Source: Pseudoalteromonas translucida KMM 520
Lineage (GTDB): Bacteria; Pseudomonadota; Gammaproteobacteria; Enterobacterales; Alteromonadaceae
Direction of reading: 5' to 3'
NCBI RefSeq assembly: GCF_001465295.1
Contig: NZ_CP011034.1
Location: 1,950,001 to 1,982,000 of the forward strand
DNA length: 32,000 bases
Shown here piece after piece: positions 20,178-32,000 of the stretch (the first letter of the stretch is position 1; the number at the start of each line of letters is the position of its first letter). A program made the translations under genes and the position numbers. The notes below the pieces were generated by a model. That model worked only from the letters and a program-made list of their open reading frames with translations, did not search any database and was not told the origin of the DNA.

Positions 20178-21533
20178 ATGACATTTAGTAATTGGGAAGC
20201 TAAACGCTTACTTTCCCTTGCCATCCCCGTTTTTTTAGCTCAGGTTACCCTTGTTTTAATGTCTGTCGTCGATACGATTATGGCAGGCCAAGTAAGCCCA
20301 ACCGATTTAGCTGCTTTATCTATTGCCACTGGTATTTGGAACCCATTATTACTTGCACTGCAAGGTATTTTACTCGCTTTAACCGGTGTTATTGCACAGT
20401 TTGCGGGTGCCAACGATAAAAAAGGCATCAGCCATTATTTTCAACAAGCTTTATATTTAACTGCGCTGTTATGTATTGCCGGGTTTGGTATTGCTCAATT
20501 TGCCGATATTATTATATTAAAGCTCGACACCAGCCCTGCTATAGCAACACTTGCCAGTGATTATATTCGCTTTGTTAAATGGGGAGTGTTTGGTTTTTTA
20601 ATTTTTACCGTTTACAGAAATATGACCGAAGGTATGGGCATGACCAAACCCGCTTTTTATATCAGCCTGTTAGGTTTAGCGGTTAATATTCCGGTTAACT
20701 ATATTTTTATTAATGGCTTATTTGGCCTACCCGCTTATGGCGGCGCAGGCTGTGGTATTGCTACTGCATTAGTATTAACTGTAATGGCAATAGCCCAAGT
20801 TATTTATTGCCAAATGAGTAAAAAAATAGATGCTAAAGGCTTAATGACTCCCTTTGAAAAACCTAATTTAACCACTATCGGCATTATCACTAAATTGGGT
20901 ATTCCTATTTCATTAGCCACTTTTTTTGAAGTAACCTTATTTGCCTGTATTCCATTATTTATTGCGCATTTAGGCGCCGTTGCCGTATCTGGCCATCAAA
21001 TTGCCGCCAGTGTTACCACTTTATTGTTTATGATGCCGCTCAGCCTTTCTATTGCTATAAGCATACGTATAGGCAACTTATACGGTCAAAACCATTTAAA
21101 ACAGCTAAAAGTTGCTGTTTCAACTAGCTATATACTGGCAGCGCTCATTGCCCTGTTTGTTGCCGTAACTACCTTTTTAGGCCGCGATTTAATAAGCCAA
21201 CTGTACAGCGATAGCCCCGAAGTACTGGCACTGGCTTCATCTATCATGATTTTAGCCTGTATATATCAATTACCTGATGCACTACAAGTTGCTGCAAACG
21301 GTATATTACGTGGATTAAAGTACACCGCACCTATTTCATACATTACATTTGTATCGTATTGGTTAGTTGGCTTTGCACTAGGCTATGTATTAGCCAGAAC
21401 CGACTTAATCGTCCCAGCAATGGGCCCACATGGTTTTTGGTTGGGCATTATTGTTGGCTTAACACTCGCTGCTGTATTATTAATGTACACAGTACATAGA
21501 CGTTTTAAATATGAACCGTCTTTGCAAGCTTAA
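20178..21533 (+). CDS. norM: MATE-family multidrug efflux transporter (NorM/MdtK-like)
   Basis: The 451-aa polytopic membrane protein has a typical MATE N-terminus (...LLSLAIPVFLAQV......VDT.MAGQVS..DLAA.S.A...W.P). Its conserved position next to ribE supports the call. Confidence 0.88.
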   Translation: MTFSNWEAKRLLSLAIPVFLAQVTLVLMSVVDTIMAGQVSPTDLAALSIATGIWNPLLLALQGILLALTGVIAQFAGANDKKGISHYFQQALYLTALLCIAGFGIAQFADIIILKLDTSPAIATLASDYIRFVKWGVFGFLIFTVYRNMTEGMGMTKPAFYISLLGLAVNIPVNYIFINGLFGLPAYGGAGCGIATALVLTVMAIAQVIYCQMSKKIDAKGLMTPFEKPNLTTIGIITKLGIPISLATFFEVTLFACIPLFIAHLGAVAVSGHQIAASVTTLLFMMPLSLSIAISIRIGNLYGQNHLKQLKVAVSTSYILAALIALFVAVTTFLGRDLISQLYSDSPEVLALASSIMILACIYQLPDALQVAANGILRGLKYTAPISYITFVSYWLVGFALGYVLARTDLIVPAMGPHGFWLGIIVGLTLAAVLLMYTVHRRFKYEPSLQA

Positions 21534-22563
21534 ACAACTATTAGTAAAGCCACTGCCAGTAACCTGTTTATTGGTAGTGTGCTTTATGGCATTAACGGCC
21601 TGCAGCGATAAGCCTAGCAATGCAAACCATACTTATACCCAGCGACTAGCTAACACGCTTGATTTACAGCCAGTAACACCAAAACCGCTAGTACCACTCA
21701 ATCTATTACCACCAACTGCATTAAATAATAGCAATATCACCTTGGGCATTATTCAACTTGCCAGTTTAAGCCACTGCAAACTTAACGTCCTCATTAGCGA
21801 GCATAATAACCAGCTCGGTAAAACCGCCACAGCAGCAAGTATATTAATCTATCAAATAAAGTTTATACAAAGTGCGCAGCAGTGCTTAACGACACTTAAA
21901 AAAGACTCTGCTATTTATAAAAAGATTTTGGCGGCAACCACACACAAACAAAATAACTTAATGCACTACTTTAATAACATGCTCTATAAAGAGTCCGAGC
22001 TTAATCGCATTTGGCAACTGAGCTCCCGTGAGCTTTCAATAACCCCAGCAGGCTTTAGCGATACAGTAAATGCCGTAACAAAGCTGGCAAATATTAAACA
22101 ACAAATAACAAAGCAGCAGTTTGCACAAATAACCTCCGAGCATTTATTTGACGCACTAGAGCAGCTTAATAAATACCAGTTTAACCAGCAGCTAATTCAA
22201 TCAGCAAGAACGCAAATAGCCCTAAATAACAGTGCCACCCAATTTATAAACACCATAAATATTAGCCAGCTATGCCAAGCAGGTAAAAATAATAACCAAG
22301 CGCAAATTGTAAATAATATCTTTAAAAAATATTACTTAGGACAAGTGCAACCTTACCAAGCACAACTCGCCGGCTACTTAGAAACCCTGCAGCCGCTATA
22401 TCGACAGCTTTGGTATAAAACAGCAATCACCAGTAAACCAATTAATAATTTACTCCAGCCCAATACAAACAGTAACTTATTGAACCAACTAAAATACTCA
22501 GCTAAAAACCATGTACTTTGGTGGCAAGAATTTTATAAAACGTGTGAAATCAGCCCAATATGA
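21511..22563 (+). CDS. Lipoprotein of unknown function (possibly DUF3080-like)
   Basis: The 350-aa product has a signal and lipobox (LLVVCFMALTA/C). It is Q/N/L-rich and helical. The start overlaps the norM 3' end by 23 nt. The family assignment is tentative. Confidence 0.6.
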   Translation: MNRLCKLKQLLVKPLPVTCLLVVCFMALTACSDKPSNANHTYTQRLANTLDLQPVTPKPLVPLNLLPPTALNNSNITLGIIQLASLSHCKLNVLISEHNNQLGKTATAASILIYQIKFIQSAQQCLTTLKKDSAIYKKILAATTHKQNNLMHYFNNMLYKESELNRIWQLSSRELSITPAGFSDTVNAVTKLANIKQQITKQQFAQITSEHLFDALEQLNKYQFNQQLIQSARTQIALNNSATQFINTINISQLCQAGKNNNQAQIVNNIFKKYYLGQVQPYQAQLAGYLETLQPLYRQLWYKTAITSKPINNLLQPNTNSNLLNQLKYSAKNHVLWWQEFYKTCEISPI

Positions 22564-22603
22564 ATAAAAAAACGGCAAATAAACGCAAAAACTATAAAGC
22601 TGC

Positions 22604-22632
22604 TTGATCCAACTCCCATCACGCTATATATT
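22604..22632 (+). promoter_or_regulatory. Putative sigma70 promoter of the tRNA-Val pair
   Basis: A TTGATC element (-35), a 17-nt spacer and TATATT (-10) are followed by a GC-rich discriminator (AGCGCCCG), typical of stringently controlled stable-RNA promoters. The -10 lies ~45 nt upstream of the first tRNA. Confidence 0.4.
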
Positions 22633-22677
22633 AGCGCCCGTGCTATCTAGTTAGCACTTAACTTAAATTAAAGTAAT

Positions 22678-22754
22678 ACGACTGTAGCTCAGTTGGTTAG
22701 AGCACTACCTTGACATGGTAGGGGTCGGTGGTTCGAATCCACTCAGTCGTACCA
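22678..22754 (+). tRNA. tRNA-Val (anticodon GAC)
   Basis: I folded the cloverleaf by hand. The acceptor stem is ACGACTG/CAGTCGT, the D-arm is GCTC-AGTTGGTTA-GAGC and the anticodon arm is CTACC-TTGACAT-GGTAG. The T-arm is GGTGG-TTCGAAT-CCACT, with an encoded CCA. It is close to E. coli valV/valW. Confidence 0.93.
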
Positions 22755-22780
22755 ACATTTAAGAATCCTAAAAAAATTGT

Positions 22781-22857
<77 letters not shown>

Positions 22858-22906
22858 ATTAAACTCTATATTTCAAACAGTTAAAAAACCCTATTCAATC
22901 TACTCG

Positions 22907-22930
22907 TTTAATTTTTTGTTGAAAATTAAA
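22907..22930 (+). terminator. Weak AT-only hairpin (TTTAATTTT-ttgttg-AAAATTAAA) followed by T-rich sequence; possible tRNA operon terminator
   Basis: A 9-bp perfect inverted repeat lies 50 nt after the second tRNA. Stability is low because all pairs are A:T. Confidence 0.25.
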
Positions 22931-23022
22931 TTCTTAGTTTTTTATTATTTTGTATTCAAAATTTTAAAATAACGAGAGCCAAGCCTCAAAAGATCATCCT
23001 AAAAACTCCAGTTTTTATCGAT

Positions 23023-23055
23023 TTGTGCCCAAACTTGTGCCCAAGCGCCCAAACC
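23023..23055. repeat. About 2.7 tandem copies of a 12-mer (TTGTGCCCAAAC / TTGTGCCCAAGC / GCCCAAACC)
   Basis: I read this directly from the sequence. A related GTGCCCAC occurs again at 23246-23253. Confidence 0.7.
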
Positions 23056-23224
23056 ACTTTTTTAGCTCTTTAATCTTCCTCAAAATTAGACCCCTACCCT
23101 TGCAAATTCACAAACCTCAAATCACAAATTCCAAACCAAAAATTTCAAATCAGGTGACCACTACCCTAATATTTTCCGTGTCATTCCATGAAATATTCTA
23201 TGACCCCTATTCCATAAACTGCTT

Positions 23225-23264
23225 CTGTGCCTTGTTTAGACATCGGTGCCCACACAAGGCACAG
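23225..23264. repeat. 11-bp perfect inverted repeat (CTGTGCCTTGT / ACAAGGCACAG) with an 18-nt loop
   Basis: I verified the reverse complement by hand. The loop contains the GTGCCCAC motif related to the upstream 12-mers. Confidence 0.7.
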
Positions 23265-23484
23265 ATACATTAATTAGTTGTGCGCAGCTATATAACTTTA
23301 ATAATATAATCTTCTCCTGTGTTTACAATAGAGAGAACTCTACATTAGGTTTCTATTATTTTTCGGGGGGATTACCCTATCTACATAACGAAAGCCTGCA
23401 TATCATTTCCAGGGAAACATTGATGAACCACCAACACTTCTTAATTGGTCTTGTAAAGAGCCCCCCTTACGGGTTTACTCCCTG

Positions 23485-25680: not shown

Positions 25681-28419
25681 CTAAAAAAAGTCGTCTTCAA
25701 AAGCTAAGTCAATAATCACAGAGTGTGTTGTTTTTACTTTGCTCTCTGTATCTTCCATCATTAACTTGTAGCTCACTGTGCGGTCAAAGCCGCTACCTTC
25801 TAATTTTATTTGTACGTTGCGTTTACGATCGTCCATCTTCTCTGAGGTCGATTCAAACAATACCTTTTCACGTGAACTTACCTTTTTACCATCGGAATCT
25901 TCAATCCATATTTCTAATTCACGGGCCTTAAATTTCTCGCCTACCGGATCTGTTTGAAGGAATTTGATCCTATCGATATTAGATACTATTTTCACAGGAT
26001 TATTGAGCGGAACAGCGTTTACTTTCTGCTTTGCGTGTTTCGTTTGAGCCTTTGTATCTAACTCTCTAATTTGAAGAACAGGAACACAAATTTCCTGTGG
26101 CATAATACCACCATGAATAAACTTAGCCCCACCAACAAAATTAAAACGGTTACTTCCCCTTGGGATCATAAACTCAGCATCATCACCACCGTCAACATCT
26201 ACGCCAGCAGTGTTAGCTAATTTGCCAGTCCAGTAATAACTGTCTGTAGGTAAGTTTGAGCCTATTACATAACGCTTTTTCGCTTCGGTTGTGCCTGCTG
26301 GTTTTGATTTAAGCGCAGTCTTATCTGAATCGGTCACGTCCGTCATTTTAAACAAAAAACCATGATCAGCAGTAATAAGTACTCTACTACCGTTTAAGCG
26401 ATTAATGATACGACCAATCAATTGCTTAATTTCATCAACGGCATCGCGAGCGGCTTCGAAGGTTTGATTCTCTGTCGCTTGCTTATCACCTATTGCATCA
26501 ATCTCATCGTGATAAATATAAACTACCTGAGTATCACGTACTTTGTCTCGGCCTTCTTGATTTGTCCAGTTAAGAACCTCATCCGCTTTAAATGCAACAC
26601 CGCCGTACTTTTCAAGGATTTTATGGCGGTTTTCATGCCCATGCACAGACATTCCATCAGCTTTATATTCTGGCTTAGTGCCAAGGTGAGCTGTCAGCTT
26701 CTGATGAGGTAACAAACTACCCATGCCCAGTTGAGTGTAAGAAGGTACAACGCCTAACTGAGACTTAATTTCAGACTTAAAGCGTTTTTCATCATTAATC
26801 TGCTGGTGAATATCATGCGCTACCTCGTATCGAAGAGCATCAGAGATGATCACAAAAACCCGTTTAGTTTGAGTTTTATTTAATAGGCCTTTAACTTCTT
26901 CACGGAAGAAGTCTTGCTGATTGTTTATTCCAGCTAGGCTCCAATTATCCAGTAAGTTTTCATCATCAACTAACTTACCCCAGACAATCGCTAAATCATG
27001 CAAGTACCAATCAACATATAAGTGCTCAATATCTTCAACAAGACCCGTTGCTTTTAAAATATCAGAGCCGTTTTTACTAATTTCAATCGAGTTCTCACTA
27101 AAAATACGATACGCATGGTCAAACTTATAAAGCTCCGTTTCATAAGCTTTATAAAGGCTCCTTGCACTTTCAAAAGCCAAACCATCAATATGCTTTTCTT
27201 TTAAGTCATAAAACTCTTTAGCCGCTCTTAATGCCGTATAAATAGCCGCATAGTTAGCACTATCTTTATGTGACCCTGTTGAGCACCAATGGCTGCGTAA
27301 CTTTTTCGAAACCCATTCATTAATTTCAACAGCGTTATATGCAGGTAAATCCGTTGCTAACGATTTAATTAGCTGCTGATCCGCTTCAACAAAGGTTTCA
27401 ACATGTATCAACTCCGACGGATGTTTAAACTCGGCAAGTTTACTCTTGATTTCTAGCTCTTGGGCAACCTCAAATGCCACAACATTATATGAATCCGATA
27501 ACGTTCGGCTTTCTCGCCAAGACGACACAAAGTTAACCACAGATGCACGTTTAGAAGCCGCATTAAATAGCAACTCTTTTACGCTCTTTGGCAGTGTCGT
27601 TGTTTCTTCGTCGCTTAAGGTCATGGGTAAAGTATGCGCCGAAAGGCTTGAGGCAAAATTAGTGGCCTGAACAGTAACGCCAGACGACTGCAACGCTTGG
27701 TAGCAATCAGTGACTAATAACTTGGTTAATAAATCTTTTAGTAAAACGAGTTGGGCACTAGCACCTTTATTATCAATCCATAAACAATTGGCAACATAGC
27801 CAAACTCTTCAACAGCTAACAGCCAAAACACTTTACCAAGCTCAAATTTATTTAAATCAGATAGCAACTCATCTGCTTTTTCTGGCTGCTCGGCATACAA
27901 CTTAATTAATTGATAAAAAGCCGCAGTAAAAGAAACCGTTTCTACCTTAGCGATAACAGCAATCATCGAAAGCTCTAATGTTTGTTTATCTGCACCCTCT
28001 GGAAGTAAGCGCTTTAGCTTGTTATATCGCTGCTGGTTCCCAAAAAACTTCTTATAGCGGCTTATATCTTGGCGAAACTCCATTCTCATACCTAGCTCAT
28101 TCAATATCATCGAGCTTGAATCAGCATAAAACTGCTCTGCGTATAAGCGAATATCATACAGCCAATCACGTGCTGGCTCGTTTTGCGGTTTATTGCTATA
28201 CAACAAGAACTTTGAGCTTGTTTCTTTTAGTTCAATACGTTGCTTTATTTCAAAATGAGAACACGCATCAAGCTCAATAAGCTCTACATTACTGCTATTA
28301 AGTTCATCATTTATTGCTGGCAGCTGCTCTTTAAATTCAACATCTTCATCTTGCCAAAATACCAATCGGCACTTGTCGAATTTGGCTAAAATGCCTTGTT
28401 TTATTTGTTCTAGGTTCAT
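25681..28419 (-). CDS. pglZ: BREX-1 alkaline-phosphatase-superfamily protein PglZ
   Basis: The 912-aa product has the N-terminal CRLVFWQDEDVEF motif, the PglZ-domain metal-site motifs VFVIISDALRYEVA and VLITADHGFLF, and a position immediately upstream of brxL. Confidence 0.92.
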   Translation of the reverse strand: MNLEQIKQGILAKFDKCRLVFWQDEDVEFKEQLPAINDELNSSNVELIELDACSHFEIKQRIELKETSSKFLLYSNKPQNEPARDWLYDIRLYAEQFYADSSSMILNELGMRMEFRQDISRYKKFFGNQQRYNKLKRLLPEGADKQTLELSMIAVIAKVETVSFTAAFYQLIKLYAEQPEKADELLSDLNKFELGKVFWLLAVEEFGYVANCLWIDNKGASAQLVLLKDLLTKLLVTDCYQALQSSGVTVQATNFASSLSAHTLPMTLSDEETTTLPKSVKELLFNAASKRASVVNFVSSWRESRTLSDSYNVVAFEVAQELEIKSKLAEFKHPSELIHVETFVEADQQLIKSLATDLPAYNAVEINEWVSKKLRSHWCSTGSHKDSANYAAIYTALRAAKEFYDLKEKHIDGLAFESARSLYKAYETELYKFDHAYRIFSENSIEISKNGSDILKATGLVEDIEHLYVDWYLHDLAIVWGKLVDDENLLDNWSLAGINNQQDFFREEVKGLLNKTQTKRVFVIISDALRYEVAHDIHQQINDEKRFKSEIKSQLGVVPSYTQLGMGSLLPHQKLTAHLGTKPEYKADGMSVHGHENRHKILEKYGGVAFKADEVLNWTNQEGRDKVRDTQVVYIYHDEIDAIGDKQATENQTFEAARDAVDEIKQLIGRIINRLNGSRVLITADHGFLFKMTDVTDSDKTALKSKPAGTTEAKKRYVIGSNLPTDSYYWTGKLANTAGVDVDGGDDAEFMIPRGSNRFNFVGGAKFIHGGIMPQEICVPVLQIRELDTKAQTKHAKQKVNAVPLNNPVKIVSNIDRIKFLQTDPVGEKFKARELEIWIEDSDGKKVSSREKVLFESTSEKMDDRKRNVQIKLEGSGFDRTVSYKLMMEDTESKVKTTHSVIIDLAFEDDFF

Positions 28420-29753
28420 TAATTGAATACACCCATATTCTCTTCTATTTCTTCACCACATACTTCACAAAATTGTGCGTACATATCGTTGCCTGCATTG
28501 CATTCGTAGCAGGTGCTGATATTGTCTTCACGTAAGGTTTCTGTACAAAATGGGCACTCTAATTCATATACTGAAACTACCGTATCACAAACATCACAGC
28601 TTGTTGCCAGTGCTTGTTCATCATGATGCTTTCTATCTTCTAGTTCAGGTTTTACCCTTTCAATAACGCCAAAACGCTCTAAGTTCTGCCCATAATCAAG
28701 TAGTAATGTTTCGCCTTTTGATGGGTGCAAACGTAAACCTCGGCCAAGTATTTGTAAAAATAACGACGTACTTGCGGTCGGTCTGGCGTTTACTATGCAA
28801 GCCAATCGCGGTGCATCCCAACCTGTAGTTAAGGTCGCTATATTTATAAGCCCATTAAGCTGGCCTTGCTCAAATTGCTGAAGGTAATCGGTTCGTTGTG
28901 TTTTTGGGGTTTGCGCAGTAATCAGCGGAAAATCAAAACCATACTCAGTCAAACACTGAGAAAATAATACACCTTGATTCACCGAACTTGCGTAAAACAC
29001 GGTAGGTAAGTTAGCCGATGTTTTATTAAGCCAGTCGGCTACTATCGACTCTACAATTGAATCTACAGCCGTAGCCTCGTCCAAATCTTTTTGAATAAAG
29101 TCGTTTTTTCCTTTTCTAACAGCTGAGATATCGGCAACAGCCTTTGGGTCTGTCACTACAGCACGTAATTGGCATAAATAGCCAGAATTTACCAACTCAT
29201 CAATACGCTTCTTATAAATTAGGGTTTTAAATAATTTATCTTTACTTTCGCCATATATTTCACCTGAATACATACGAAAAGGCGTAGCAGTGAACCCTAT
29301 AATTTTTGGCTCATTCCCATGCATAGCAATAGTATCTAATATATATTGATAACGGGCTGATTGTTCTGGTGGAATTAAATGCGCTTCATCAACAATCACT
29401 AAGTCCCAATCAGGGTTCTCTCCTATTTCTTTTATAATAGAATCTCGGCTTGCAGACGTTACCTGCTTAATTTCTTTGCGACGAAGTCCTGAGCAATAAA
29501 TACCAACATCTAAATCAGGCCAAATTGCTCTTAGCTTTTCTTCATTTTGCTGAACAATCTCCTGAGTGTGAGCCAAAATTAACACTCTAAGCTTCGGTAT
29601 ATCAGTAATTAACTGTTTAATCAGCTCAGCAAAAATAATTGTTTTACCACTTGCTGTTGGTAAAATACATAAGCCATTTTTTTCATTTGAATTAACGTAA
29701 AAATTTTTTAACGCTAAAATTGCTTCTTGTTGATAGGGACGCAGTTCCATCAC
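28419..29753 (-). CDS. SF2 DEAH-box helicase, RadD/YejH-like (ResIII/COG1061-type), with two C-terminal zinc ribbons
   Basis: The 444-aa product has a Q motif (LRPYQQEA), motif I (LPTASGKT, nt 29640-29660), motif II (VDEAH, DEAH at nt 29379-29390), motif III (TATP), motif V (LTTGWDAP) and motif VI (QILGRGLR). The C-terminus has CDVC-x10-CPFC and CYEC-x10-CEVC (nt 28458-28598). The likely start is ATG 29750, overlapping the upstream stop (TGATG); GTG 29753 is the track start. Its stop overlaps the pglZ start (TAATG). Confidence 0.85.
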   Translation of the reverse strand: MMELRPYQQEAILALKNFYVNSNEKNGLCILPTASGKTIIFAELIKQLITDIPKLRVLILAHTQEIVQQNEEKLRAIWPDLDVGIYCSGLRRKEIKQVTSASRDSIIKEIGENPDWDLVIVDEAHLIPPEQSARYQYILDTIAMHGNEPKIIGFTATPFRMYSGEIYGESKDKLFKTLIYKKRIDELVNSGYLCQLRAVVTDPKAVADISAVRKGKNDFIQKDLDEATAVDSIVESIVADWLNKTSANLPTVFYASSVNQGVLFSQCLTEYGFDFPLITAQTPKTQRTDYLQQFEQGQLNGLINIATLTTGWDAPRLACIVNARPTASTSLFLQILGRGLRLHPSKGETLLLDYGQNLERFGVIERVKPELEDRKHHDEQALATSCDVCDTVVSVYELECPFCTETLREDNISTCYECNAGNDMYAQFCEVCGEEIEENMGVFN

Positions 29754-30346
29754 ATATCCTTCACTTCAGTAATAACTTGAAAGAAATAATCAAAAAATGG
29801 TTGGTTACTTTGATAATCAGGCTCACTTATCCGCCCATTTCTATGGATCAACTCGTTACGTTGTTTACGGATTGTTTTTTGAGTTTTTCCCGTTCTTTGC
29901 TTAACAAGCTCACCAGTCAGCTTATCGGCCAGTAGTTGTTTTATCTTGTATTCATCTAATTCAGAATTAAACTTTTTCAAGCATTTGAAAACTTGATCAA
30001 CATTGATTTTTTCAAAAGAACTTCTTGAAGCTAAATATTTTGAAAACAAAGGTTCATACACTTTCTTTTCAAAGGTTTCGTCGGTGTAACCAATATCTTC
30101 TAAATTACTCGATAATGACTTAAACGTATCTTCACACCAATTGCATACCTGTGCAGTTCGAATAATATGAATAGCAATTTGCTCAACTGCCATCCATTGT
30201 GTTAGAAATGCCTGAGTATGATGCCCCTGCTTTTGCAATCCATTTACTTCGACTTCAATATTTACGATTAAATCATTGCCACTTTTAAGTTTTTGTAATA
30301 ACCGTCTTTTAACATTAGCGTCGCTAGTCAACCTTGGAGGTGCCAT
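29750..30346 (-). CDS. Hypothetical 198-aa helical-looking protein with an R-N-x3-H motif; candidate HEPN-domain RNase
   Basis: The ORF has a good SD (AAGGTGGTGaattaatATG) located inside the pglX 3' end. Its start lies 1 nt after the pglX stop. R163-N-E-L-I-H168 (nt 29843-29860) is a canonical HEPN Rx4-6H signature placed ~30 aa from the C-terminus, as in minimal HEPN domains. The composition suggests an all-helical fold, but I ran no secondary-structure prediction. I recognise no other family. The CDS is well supported (~0.85), but the HEPN assignment is tentative (~0.45). Confidence 0.6.
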   Translation of the reverse strand: MAPPRLTSDANVKRRLLQKLKSGNDLIVNIEVEVNGLQKQGHHTQAFLTQWMAVEQIAIHIIRTAQVCNWCEDTFKSLSSNLEDIGYTDETFEKKVYEPLFSKYLASRSSFEKINVDQVFKCLKKFNSELDEYKIKQLLADKLTGELVKQRTGKTQKTIRKQRNELIHRNGRISEPDYQSNQPFFDYFFQVITEVKDM

Positions 30347-30347
30347 A

Positions 30348-32000
30348 TTAATTCACCACCTTTCCGTGGATGGCTTTTACATCGCTCAGTAAATTGCCAA
30401 ATTTGCCGTAGTTAACTTTTACCCCGTCGTCGAGGTCGAGAGTAATACGTTTTTCAGCGAAGTGTTTGAGTTGTTCATCAAAAGAGCGAAGTTCGGCTTG
30501 TTTTCCCCCAAGTGACTTTAAGTCTTTTTCGATAGTACGTGCTTCCGTGCCTGTGGCTTGTAGTTGTTGCTCAGATAACAAATTATATTGAGCTTCGTAT
30601 GCACCAATCAGCGGTATAAGATACTCAGTACGCATACGCGACAAAGTGCTTTCGTTATAGCGATGCATATAGACTAAACACTCAAAGGCTTTTTCTTTTC
30701 CTGAGCTAAATAACCAGTATATTGGCTTTCTTGCATACTTAGTGACATGTTCTTTAAAAAATTGAGTTGATAAGTATCTTCTAAGAGTATTTTCTGCTGA
30801 CTCAGCCTTCTTAGGATTAATTGCATTAAGTATCAAGCTATCAGCAATGAAATTAATATTTTGGTTTAAGCTCTCAGCTCCCCAAACACTTTTTACAAAC
30901 TCAACTACCCTGCCTGTTGCATCATCTTCATATACCCAAGAATCCTCTGCTAACGGCACAATTGCATCATCATCCGGCTGAAAGCTTGAGTACATTCCCT
31001 TGTTTAATACCGATTTAAACTGACTAACGTCTTGGTTTGCAAAAACCACCCCGTCACCGGTATAACTAAATCGACCCATTATGCAGCCTACAATATAACT
31101 TATTAAACTAACCACGGTATCCGATCTAAAAGTATTAAGCACCTTCGCTTTATAAGCATCAGGTTCGCTTTCGTCTAAATTCGTACCAACAGTAAAGTAT
31201 GGGTTTTTATAGAAAGACAAATCAGATGCAGATATTACTACTCGCTCATTTGCGTCAATTTGATAGCTTTCATCTACATGCTCATTTAAGCTTTGCTCCA
31301 GCGAGCTAATATAATTAACAAATTGATGTGTATCAGATTCAATCGTTAAAAAGTCATCTGCTATCAATGTCGAACTTGCCTTAAGATGTTCAAGCATAAT
31401 AGGATGGCTGCCAAACGCTATTGATGTTTCTACGCTATGCCAGTCTTCTTTTGAACACTCAACAAGTTGCTCCACAGTATCTGCAATAGCTGCTTTTTCA
31501 TCATCAACAATAGGTAACACGGCTAAATCATTTGGTCTTATTGAGCCTAAAACCCCTTCTGGATACACCGTTTTGACTAAACGGTTAAACATTGAAGAGT
31601 TTAACAAACCCAACTGAAACAACCTTGTTTGCTCATCAGTAATATTTTCACTTGGGGCAAAGCAAGGGCCTGACGCATCATAAATAGCGTCAGATGGTAC
31701 TTCTCGAGCATTAAACGTCGGCGCCAAAGCGGTCCAAGAGTTAACTTTGCTTTCTAATTGTTGATTAAGTTGACCAATTTCAGATTCCTTCGTATTTACA
31801 TAGCCATTAATGTTTCCATACCAACGCCTATACTCTCCACCTGAAATTATGGGCTTCCAACTGCCTTGTTCGCTATCTAAATCATGATTATTTAGCTCCC
31901 ACCACTGCCTAACATATTTATCACGGTCAATGTTTTTACCTGCTGGCAGTGTTGCCACACTAGACTTAAAAGGCTGCCCCAACGAAAATGCATTCTGTAA
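30348..32000 (-). CDS. pglX: BREX-1 adenine-specific DNA methyltransferase PglX, C-terminal ~550 aa (partial; the gene continues beyond the window end)
   Basis: The frame is open to the window edge. The track's M at 31982 is a TTG inside a longer frame (...LQNAFSLGQPFK...). The C-terminal tail ...LDLDDGVKVNYGKFG..L is typical of PglX as I recall it. Its position upstream of pglZ-brxL supports the call. The catalytic NPPY region would lie outside the window. Confidence 0.85.
   Translation of the reverse strand, partial: LQNAFSLGQPFKSSVATLPAGKNIDRDKYVRQWWELNNHDLDSEQGSWKPIISGGEYRRWYGNINGYVNTKESEIGQLNQQLESKVNSWTALAPTFNAREVPSDAIYDASGPCFAPSENITDEQTRLFQLGLLNSSMFNRLVKTVYPEGVLGSIRPNDLAVLPIVDDEKAAIADTVEQLVECSKEDWHSVETSIAFGSHPIMLEHLKASSTLIADDFLTIESDTHQFVNYISSLEQSLNEHVDESYQIDANERVVISASDLSFYKNPYFTVGTNLDESEPDAYKAKVLNTFRSDTVVSLISYIVGCIMGRFSYTGDGVVFANQDVSQFKSVLNKGMYSSFQPDDDAIVPLAEDSWVYEDDATGRVVEFVKSVWGAESLNQNINFIADSLILNAINPKKAESAENTLRRYLSTQFFKEHVTKYARKPIYWLFSSGKEKAFECLVYMHRYNESTLSRMRTEYLIPLIGAYEAQYNLLSEQQLQATGTEARTIEKDLKSLGGKQAELRSFDEQLKHFAEKRITLDLDDGVKVNYGKFGNLLSDVKAIHGKVVN

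Follow-up and report, generated by a model that had tools for sequence, protein, structure and literature searches.

A RadD-family ATPase without the C-terminal domain in a type-1 BREX operon of Pseudoalteromonas translucida and its relatives

The window analysed here is a 32,000-nucleotide stretch of Pseudoalteromonas translucida KMM 520 (contig NZ_CP011034.1, positions 1,950,001 to 1,982,000 of the forward strand), and it carries a type-1 bacteriophage exclusion (BREX) operon, as identified using Pfam, PADLOC, and NCBIfam models. Between the pglX and pglZ genes of this operon lies a gene for a superfamily 2 (SF2) protein, referred to below as the helicase. By sequence comparison, it is a RadD-family ATPase that retains only its two RecA-like domains and two zinc fingers (RD1-RD2-ZF1-ZF2), and its closest kin outside its own clade are (pro)phage replication-module helicases, not housekeeping RadD. 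An earlier note, made from the letters of the stretch, had described a shortened RadD-like helicase with twin CxxC-x10-CxxC zinc ribbons in a defence operon, and the open reading frame (ORF), motifs, ribbons, and BREX genes behind that description were verified by translation and profile searches.

The helicase gene and its operon

The features of the helicase gene are listed below in window coordinates. Coordinates in related loci are preceded by the locus handle.

28419..29753, minus strand: RadD-family SF2 ATPase without the C-terminal domain (CTD), the helicase; 444 aa from a GTG start
29640..29660, minus strand: Walker A / motif I, PTASGKT; K37 equals RadD K37 (translation and alignment)
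29379..29390, minus strand: motif II, DEAH; D122 and E123 equal RadD D117 and E118 (translation and alignment)
28545..28598, minus strand: zinc ribbon 1, CDVCDTVVSVYELECPFC; residues 386-403 with C386, C389, C400, and C403; compact counterpart of RadD ZF1
28458..28511, minus strand: zinc ribbon 2, CYECNAGNDMYAQFCEVC; residues 415-432 with C415, C418, C429, and C432; counterpart of RadD ZF2

The architecture is RecA-like domain 1, RecA-like domain 2, ZF1, ZF2, and a short acidic tail. The start is probably the ATG at 29750, giving a 443-aa protein (MELRPYQ...), because homologues start there and the codon overlaps the upstream stop (TGATG). The blocks LRPYQQEA, TATPFR, LTTGWDAP, and RPT.S.SLFLQILGRGLRL...LDYG.N were all found in the ORF, and they align with E. 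coli RadD residue by residue. Both ribbons have the form CxxC-x10-CxxC, ribbon 2 is followed by a conserved acidic tail (VCGEEIEEN..F.), and the C-terminus lies 12 residues past ribbon 2. The protein thus falls 142 aa short of E. coli RadD (586 aa). Walker A, DEAH, TATP, QxxGRGLR (motif VI), the cysteines (8/8, as the earlier note had expected of homologues), and VCGE were invariant across 26 clade members, down to 51% identity. The ATPase is conserved and presumably active.

The other genes of the operon in the window are as follows.

30348..31982, minus strand: PglX, C-terminal 544 aa (BREX type-1 methyltransferase); the gene runs off the window end
29750..30346, minus strand: 198-aa HEPN-like gene, between pglX and the helicase gene
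25681..28419, minus strand: PglZ (BREX-1 type A); TIGR02687, 799 bits
23485..25668, minus strand: BrxL, Lon-like AAA+ protein, last operon gene; TIGR02653, 1228 bits

PglX matched NF033452 at 405 bits, under the 500-bit cutoff of the model, as the window end truncates the gene. The order is pglX, small gene, helicase, pglZ, brxL, and the genes are co-oriented and tightly packed. The pglX stop lies 1 nt before the ATG of the small gene (TAA-T-ATG), the small-gene stop overlaps the helicase start (ATGTGATGG, TGATG), and the helicase stop overlaps the pglZ ATG (TAATG). Promoter-like and terminator-like sites across the operon were rarer than in shuffled controls. The helicase is translationally coupled between the HEPN-like gene and pglZ. 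BrxA, BrxB, and BrxC were present in the related loci L011, L102, and L104; in the window, they would lie past the window end.

The GC content of the operon reached its minimum at 29600-30200, in the HEPN-like gene and at the 5' end of the helicase gene (0.32-0.34 versus about 0.39), in line with the small gene having been exchanged more recently. A low-GC non-coding gap of about 920 bp (22564-23484) separates brxL from a DUF3080 gene in the window. The BREX island adjoins the same DUF3080 and MatE pair in the window (20178-22563) and in Alishewanella agri (L005:19660-21335), which points to a chromosomal insertion site shared across genera.

RadD family membership, domain loss, and phage relatives

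The best curated family was the RadD equivalog NF053632 (heli_RadD_YejH), matched with E=1.4e-69 and 235 bits over residues 2-390 against positions 1-386 of the 573 in the model; the next-best curated family scored 53 bits. Among sequences of solved structures, the top match was also E. coli RadD (6jde; E=5e-49, residues 3-359). RecA-like domains 1 and 2, with the Q-motif, Walker A, DEAH, and motif VI, aligned to RadD residues 4-361, and ribbon 2 aligned weakly to RadD 432-452 in the same search. An AlphaFold model of the helicase (mean pLDDT 74) was confident at residues 1-364, and Foldseek placed RadD structures first (7r7j, E=1e-26), ahead of XPB (1e-16). The resemblance to E. coli RadD that the earlier note had drawn from motif order holds at the levels of curated family, solved sequence, and fold. 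E. coli RadD (YejH; PDB 6JDE / 7R7J / 8H5Y) is of the same SF2 subfamily and shares with the BREX helicase the Q-motif LRPYQQEA, GKT, DEAH, TATPFR, and QIxGRGLR, as well as two tandem C4 zinc elements after RecA-like domain 2. It differs in that the BREX helicase, at about 32% identity, has a compact ZF1 without the RadD insert of about 22 residues, has no CTD, and lies in a defence operon, not a housekeeping locus. The NF053632 cutoff of 720 bits, against which E. coli RadD scores 1030 bits, was not reached by the helicase, and orthology to housekeeping RadD was rejected on this score together with the defence-operon context.

The structure of RadD comprises RD1, RD2, ZF1 (C384/387/411/425), ZF2 (C434/437/448/451), and the CTD (PMC9049331). 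In a 61-sequence family alignment, the eight clade cysteines aligned with these eight RadD cysteines; the four ZF1 cysteines were present in 61/61 sequences, including RadD and the phage helicases, and ZF2 in 46/61. The CTD could be aligned between RadD and phage-type proteins of about 555 aa, and the CTD columns were empty for the whole short clade, as had been supposed of the window protein from its length and its end right after the ribbons. The twin ribbons are the published RadD ZF1 and ZF2 (PMC9049331) in compact form; they are ancestral zinc fingers of the family and no new acquisition.

A word-index homologue search returned some 29 proteins with lengths of 437-452 aa and one further protein of 504 aa, all at 51-99% identity; at these divergences, synonymous sites are saturated. 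Below this group, identity fell to 37-46% and the protein length rose to about 555 aa. By neighbour-joining, the short proteins were monophyletic in 200/200 bootstraps, so the BREX-embedded copies form a clade of their own, a point that had been left to a phylogeny. In the same tree, which holds one bona fide RadD only, the short proteins and the prophage-type proteins of about 555 aa split from E. coli RadD and three cultured-phage helicases in 197/200 bootstraps. A HMMER search against 1.84 billion cluster representatives gave 3089 clusters at E≤1e-30, of which the clade accounts for 2 (P0013 and P0030); the other top matches were at most 41% identical and typically 520-600 aa. The clade is real but small.

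All 90 of the nearest relatives of about 555 aa scored no more than 290 bits on the RadD model (cutoff 720). No true RadD was among the 120 best word-index matches or the 150 best exhaustive matches, and it is on these two lists that the statement that no true RadD is closer rests; the 150 exhaustive matches all scored at least 220 bits, and E. coli RadD about 170 bits. The three relatives of about 555 aa that were examined lie in phage or prophage contexts, where AAA_24 (a RecA-like NTPase), DUF669, and the helicase share one strand and the opposite strand carries a Prim-Pol/PriCT/AAA_25 primase, with terminase, HNH, RusA, tail-fibre, and methyltransferase genes nearby. AAA_24 and/or DUF669 also stood beside the helicase in 30/72 more distant metagenomic loci, mostly both directly upstream, with helicases 30-45% identical to the query in nearly all of the 30; pglX or pglZ was found in 0/30 of these loci. 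Among phage protein families, the helicase matched phrog_16, "DNA helicase" (PHROG; E=1.8e-81, 276 bits, residues 1-409), which outscores the RadD model, and a homologue is encoded in 3157 phage records. With both profile matches and eight invariant cysteines, the ORF is no chance feature.

The phrog_16 phage and prophage helicases are the closest proteins outside the clade (37-46% identity) and have the motor and ZF1, and often ZF2, in common with the BREX form. They are about 530-600 aa long, keep the CTD, and lie amid phage replication genes, whereas the BREX form lacks the CTD and never adjoins AAA_24 or DUF669. The most economical reading is that a helicase of a phage replication or recombination module was captured by a BREX operon and then lost the CTD. 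The relation to RadD put forward in the earlier note holds with respect to the family; descent from housekeeping RadD, as an orthologue or direct derivative, does not, the nearest relatives being phage helicases.

Two full-length phage helicases have C-terminal tails that resemble the tip of the SSB C-terminus, the type of peptide bound by the RadD CTD: Roseobacter phage CRP-901 gp20 (L020:3995-5638) ends in ...DFSFEEIPF, and the Pseudomonas phage NP1 protein (L021:4001-5776) ends in ...ADLDDDIPF. These helicases might self-regulate or compete for SSB-interacting partners. The BREX clade has the conserved acidic tail VCGEE[IL]EEN..F. after ZF2.

There were no phage genes in the window, where the neighbours are pglX, the HEPN-like gene, pglZ, and brxL, and no phage replication module. 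It is very improbable that the gene is a redundant or decaying radD paralogue or a prophage remnant carried in the island, even if some automatic annotations name homologues "DNA repair protein RadD": besides the absence of phage genes nearby, the score is far under the RadD equivalog cutoff, neither the catalytic residues nor the zinc ligands vary among homologues at 51-99% identity, and the same operonic slot, with overlapping codons, is occupied in Pseudoalteromonas, Alteromonas, Alishewanella, and Chromatiaceae.

Residence in BREX, the upstream gene, and embedded cargo

In every clade member with enough flanking sequence (about 15 non-redundant loci), the helicase is found between pglX and pglZ, in a type-1 BREX operon that also has brxL. 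The genome-collection scan gave 2 close loci only, the single-protein patterns being narrow, and the metagenome scan and direct look-ups gave the rest. The loci are as follows.

The window; its TARA twin (L022); Pseudoalteromonas sp. T1lg48 (L001) and T1lg76 (L101)
Alteromonas halophila (L004); Alishewanella agri (L005); a Chromatiaceae metagenome-assembled genome (L002)
Metagenomic loci L007, L009/L028, L011, L025, L026, L027, L104, and L106

Helicase identity to the window protein (53-99%) tracks PglZ identity (57-98%), and BrxL is 78-99% identical, which indicates one BREX lineage. The clade is confined to marine and aquatic Gammaproteobacteria, and the plasmid collection contained no helicase copy closer than 35% identity. 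Many related BREX loci have two pglX genes, or pglX and a 3' pglX fragment, often with a DRT UG5-nitrilase reverse transcriptase between them (L002:1555-9903; L005:1-9553; L009:2509-9486; L004:2427-9523; L007:2438-9523; L022:4183-9400); the doubling may serve to swap specificity or may stem from the splitting of pglX by an inserted DRT. At L024:3255-4895, a pglX C-terminal segment, 66% identical to that of the window, lies downstream of the helicase, not upstream, and the locus may be rearranged or may hold another pglX cassette.

The slot directly upstream of the helicase was missed in the earlier note. It is occupied by a swappable HEPN-like or TIR gene, which is the strongest clue to function. 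HEPN-like family A (197-203 aa, invariant RNxxxH) was found in the window, L022, L023/L055, L024, L101, L104, and L106, and family B (148 aa, RNxxVH), distant kin of A (hhalign E=3.7e-4), in L005 and L011. A third, unrelated family of 152 aa with RNVAGH occupies L001 and L025, and TIR_2 proteins of 158-163 aa with the usual SPAFLxS...E.EL segment occupy L004, L007, and L009. The spacing between small gene and helicase ranges from codon overlap up to 23 nt. In L106, pglX and the HEPN-like gene are separated by four inserted genes, yet the HEPN-like gene still overlaps the helicase start, which suggests that small gene and helicase move together. A frameshift splits the HEPN-like gene in two metagenomic contigs (L023:87-661; L055:1003-1577), through either pseudogene formation or an assembly error.

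The 198-aa protein of the window carries RNELIH at 29843-29860 (minus strand), invariant in 9 homologues, and its AlphaFold model is all-helical (pLDDT 78), so that the Rx4-6H motif lies in an all-alpha domain, as expected of HEPN. It had no Pfam match at threshold (weak HEPN_RiboL-PSP, E=0.012) and a weak PADLOC Csx1/Csm6 match (E=3.7e-4). Foldseek against PDB gave nothing at E≤0.001, the best HEPN-like structure being 2q00 with a probability of 0.25.

Known or candidate defence cargo was found downstream of the helicase, mostly after a spacer of 74-183 nt and abutting the helicase in L011 and L101. The types were Bunzi (BnzAB), pairs of HEC-02 and PDC-M25 OLD-type ATPase, an AbiJ-like pair, GmrSD/HEC-06, and an Hsp70-like trio, and the helicase-pglZ interval is a cargo hotspot. 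Cargo intervals are given below.

L001:11400-14638
L009:11500-15037
L011:11329-12869
L101:9928-13512

The genes of the trio encode proteins of about 360, 380, and 589 aa, of which the third is Hsp70/MreB-like (L007:11487-15458; L025:2834-6811). It lies downstream of the helicase in L007 and upstream in L025, had no PADLOC match, and may be undescribed defence cargo.

Kinship to phage and a hotspot location bear on a further explanation, which we consider doubtful, namely that the helicase, as a truncated copy of the phage module helicase, is a phage-derived decoy or dominant-negative that poisons, titrates, or is triggered by phage AAA_24/DUF669 machinery and is a self-contained defence gene lodged in the BREX cargo hotspot. 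The closest kin are indeed phage-module helicases, the lost CTD is a partner- and DNA-binding domain (PMC9821108), and unrelated defence cargo demonstrably collects in the pglX-pglZ gap. However, the ATPase motifs are strictly conserved, which would be superfluous in a passive decoy, the helicase was not seen outside BREX, unlike other embedded cargo, and identity of 37-46% to phage helicases makes specific mimicry unlikely.

Proposed function and its alternatives

With moderate confidence, we propose that the phage-derived ATPase detects branched or replicating phage DNA, or moves along it, and that it governs the small effector, as an abortive-type backup to BREX. In origin, a helicase of phage AAA_24-DUF669-helicase modules would have lost its CTD; it has become a fixed resident of one gammaproteobacterial type-1 BREX lineage, where it usually pairs, translationally coupled, with a small and often exchanged effector-like protein (HEPN-like here, TIR or others elsewhere). 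First, the ATPase would bind or translocate on the phage DNA via ZF1-ZF2 and the motor core. In RadD truncations, the CTD binds the SSB C-terminus, and the zinc-finger domain and CTD bind branched DNA (PMC9821108); recruitment through an SSB-binding CTD, the route of RadD, would be impossible for the BREX ATPase. The engaged ATPase would then license the small partner, with RNA cleavage by a HEPN-like protein or NAD+ depletion by a TIR protein, which would add a second, abortive-infection-type layer behind BREX. Phage sensing by the helicase, as raised in the earlier note, is plausible on this account. Membership of the family, loss of the domain, conserved catalytic residues and zinc ligands, a location exclusive to BREX, coupling in the operon, and exchange of the effector are shown; that the helicase senses DNA structure, is functionally tied to the small gene, and brings about abortive infection is inferred.

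More tentatively, the ATPase and its interchangeable HEPN-like or TIR partner may be an unnamed two-gene abortive-infection module that works only inside type-1 BREX, the effector being released when BREX is overwhelmed. The trigger might be stalled or branched phage replication intermediates from BREX action, or phage proteins that dock on a phage RadD-like helicase.

Several points weigh against the proposed sensor and effector roles. All loci with the ATPase belong to a single, fairly narrow BREX lineage, and its exclusivity to BREX could reflect one old insertion inherited vertically, not functional dependence. The AlphaFold model has pLDDT <50 for residues 365-444, the zinc-ribbon region included, and ribbon packing therefore cannot be stated structurally. 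Unwinding by E. coli RadD was not seen in vitro (PMC9049331), and the name "helicase" may therefore not suit the BREX protein. The HEPN assignment of the 198-aa protein is weak, and the putative label "HEPN-like" is used, not HEPN, because the Pfam and PADLOC hints are weak and there was no significant PDB fold match. Genomic arrangements also vary: L002 and L026 have the helicase without any small gene, L027 has a GmrSD-like gene in the upstream slot, L025 has the Hsp70-like trio inserted between small gene and helicase, and L102/L103 keep pglX, the HEPN-like gene, and pglZ without the helicase. An obligate two-gene module is weakened by L002, L026, L027, L025, and L102.

The same separability, with the helicase alone in L002 and L026 and the HEPN-like gene alone in L102, would suit a BREX-integrated accessory motor like BrxHI or BrxHII, which would act with PglX, PglZ, and BrxL on phage DNA, the small genes being separate backup effectors. 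We rate this explanation, the main rival, as somewhat unlikely. It agrees with the residence of the helicase in BREX only, always between pglX and pglZ, with its divergence in step with PglZ, and with the overlap of its stop and the pglZ start in the window; other BREX types have an SF2 helicase, and BREX-embedded HEPN backup effectors have been described (PMC12839542). Against it, type-1 BREX has BrxL in any case and functions in the absence of a helicase (PMC12839542), cargo often lies between helicase and pglZ, so that tight helicase-PglZ coupling is not conserved, and the small gene stays with the helicase when displaced from pglX (L106). The helicase is also unrelated to the BrxHI and BrxHII families: neither model was among the 25 best of the 26 PADLOC families matched at E≤0.01.

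The best PADLOC match was a generic type IV restriction endonuclease helicase core at 59 bits, and BrxHI/II, HamB, DrmA-type, GajB, DpdE/F, type I/III Res, and PbeA were rejected as generic core matches of at most 59 bits. PADLOC v2 has no specific model for a CTD-less RadD-type BREX helicase. In BREX types 3 and 6, a helicase gene reportedly adjoins pglX and pglZ (Goldfarb et al. in 2015). BrxHI (Ski2/Lhr-like) and BrxHII (RapA/SNF2-like) of BREX types 2, 3, 5, and 6 are likewise SF2 ATPases within the BREX operon (PMC12839542), but they are of different SF2 families, are much larger, and replace BrxL in their BREX types, while BrxL is kept here.

Hachiman (HamA nuclease and HamB Ski2-like helicase) and Gabija (GajA and GajB) each combine an ATPase that watches DNA state with a separate effector gene. 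Their SF1/SF2 ATPase and effector logic is similar to that proposed for the BREX helicase and its small partner, but the effector types are others and the systems are autonomous and not confined to BREX. The HamB match of the helicase was 23 bits over the Walker region only, with no HamA (DUF1837) neighbour in the window.

Helicases in other BREX types, nested cargo and standalone HEPN genes (PMC12839542), and the RadD zinc fingers (PMC9049331) are already known. Embedded auxiliary or backup effectors of BREX (standalone HEPN, GmrSD/BrxU, PARIS, and others) are small nuclease-like genes or entire defence systems between core genes, as here, and HEPN modules on their own are among those reported (PMC12839542). 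The survey has no mention of a RadD-like helicase partner, of TIR partners, or of a fixed helicase with a swappable small gene (PMC12839542), and RadD is not mentioned in the 2026 BREX survey. Literature searches gave no paper on RadD together with anti-phage helicases, and unrelated papers only for RadD with BREX. We could not find a description of a CTD-less RadD-family/phrog_16-type helicase fixed in a type-1 BREX lineage with an exchangeable HEPN-like or TIR partner.

The general impact is moderate because the clade is small and limited to marine and aquatic Gammaproteobacteria. Natural variants of BREX with an extra motor and effector can help to address how BREX stops phage replication; the lineage described here brings in a branched-DNA-type ATPase from phage replication modules and, beside it, a slot in which HEPN-like and TIR genes are swapped. 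If the pair is functional, it would provide a testable link between BREX and abortive infection, a case in which host defence has taken over a phage replication helicase, and a minimal protein of the RadD family (motor and ZF1-ZF2) in which the zinc fingers could be dissected without the SSB-binding domain. If the two-gene module is real, these loci would define a sub-type of type-1 BREX that includes a helicase and carries its own fail-safe.

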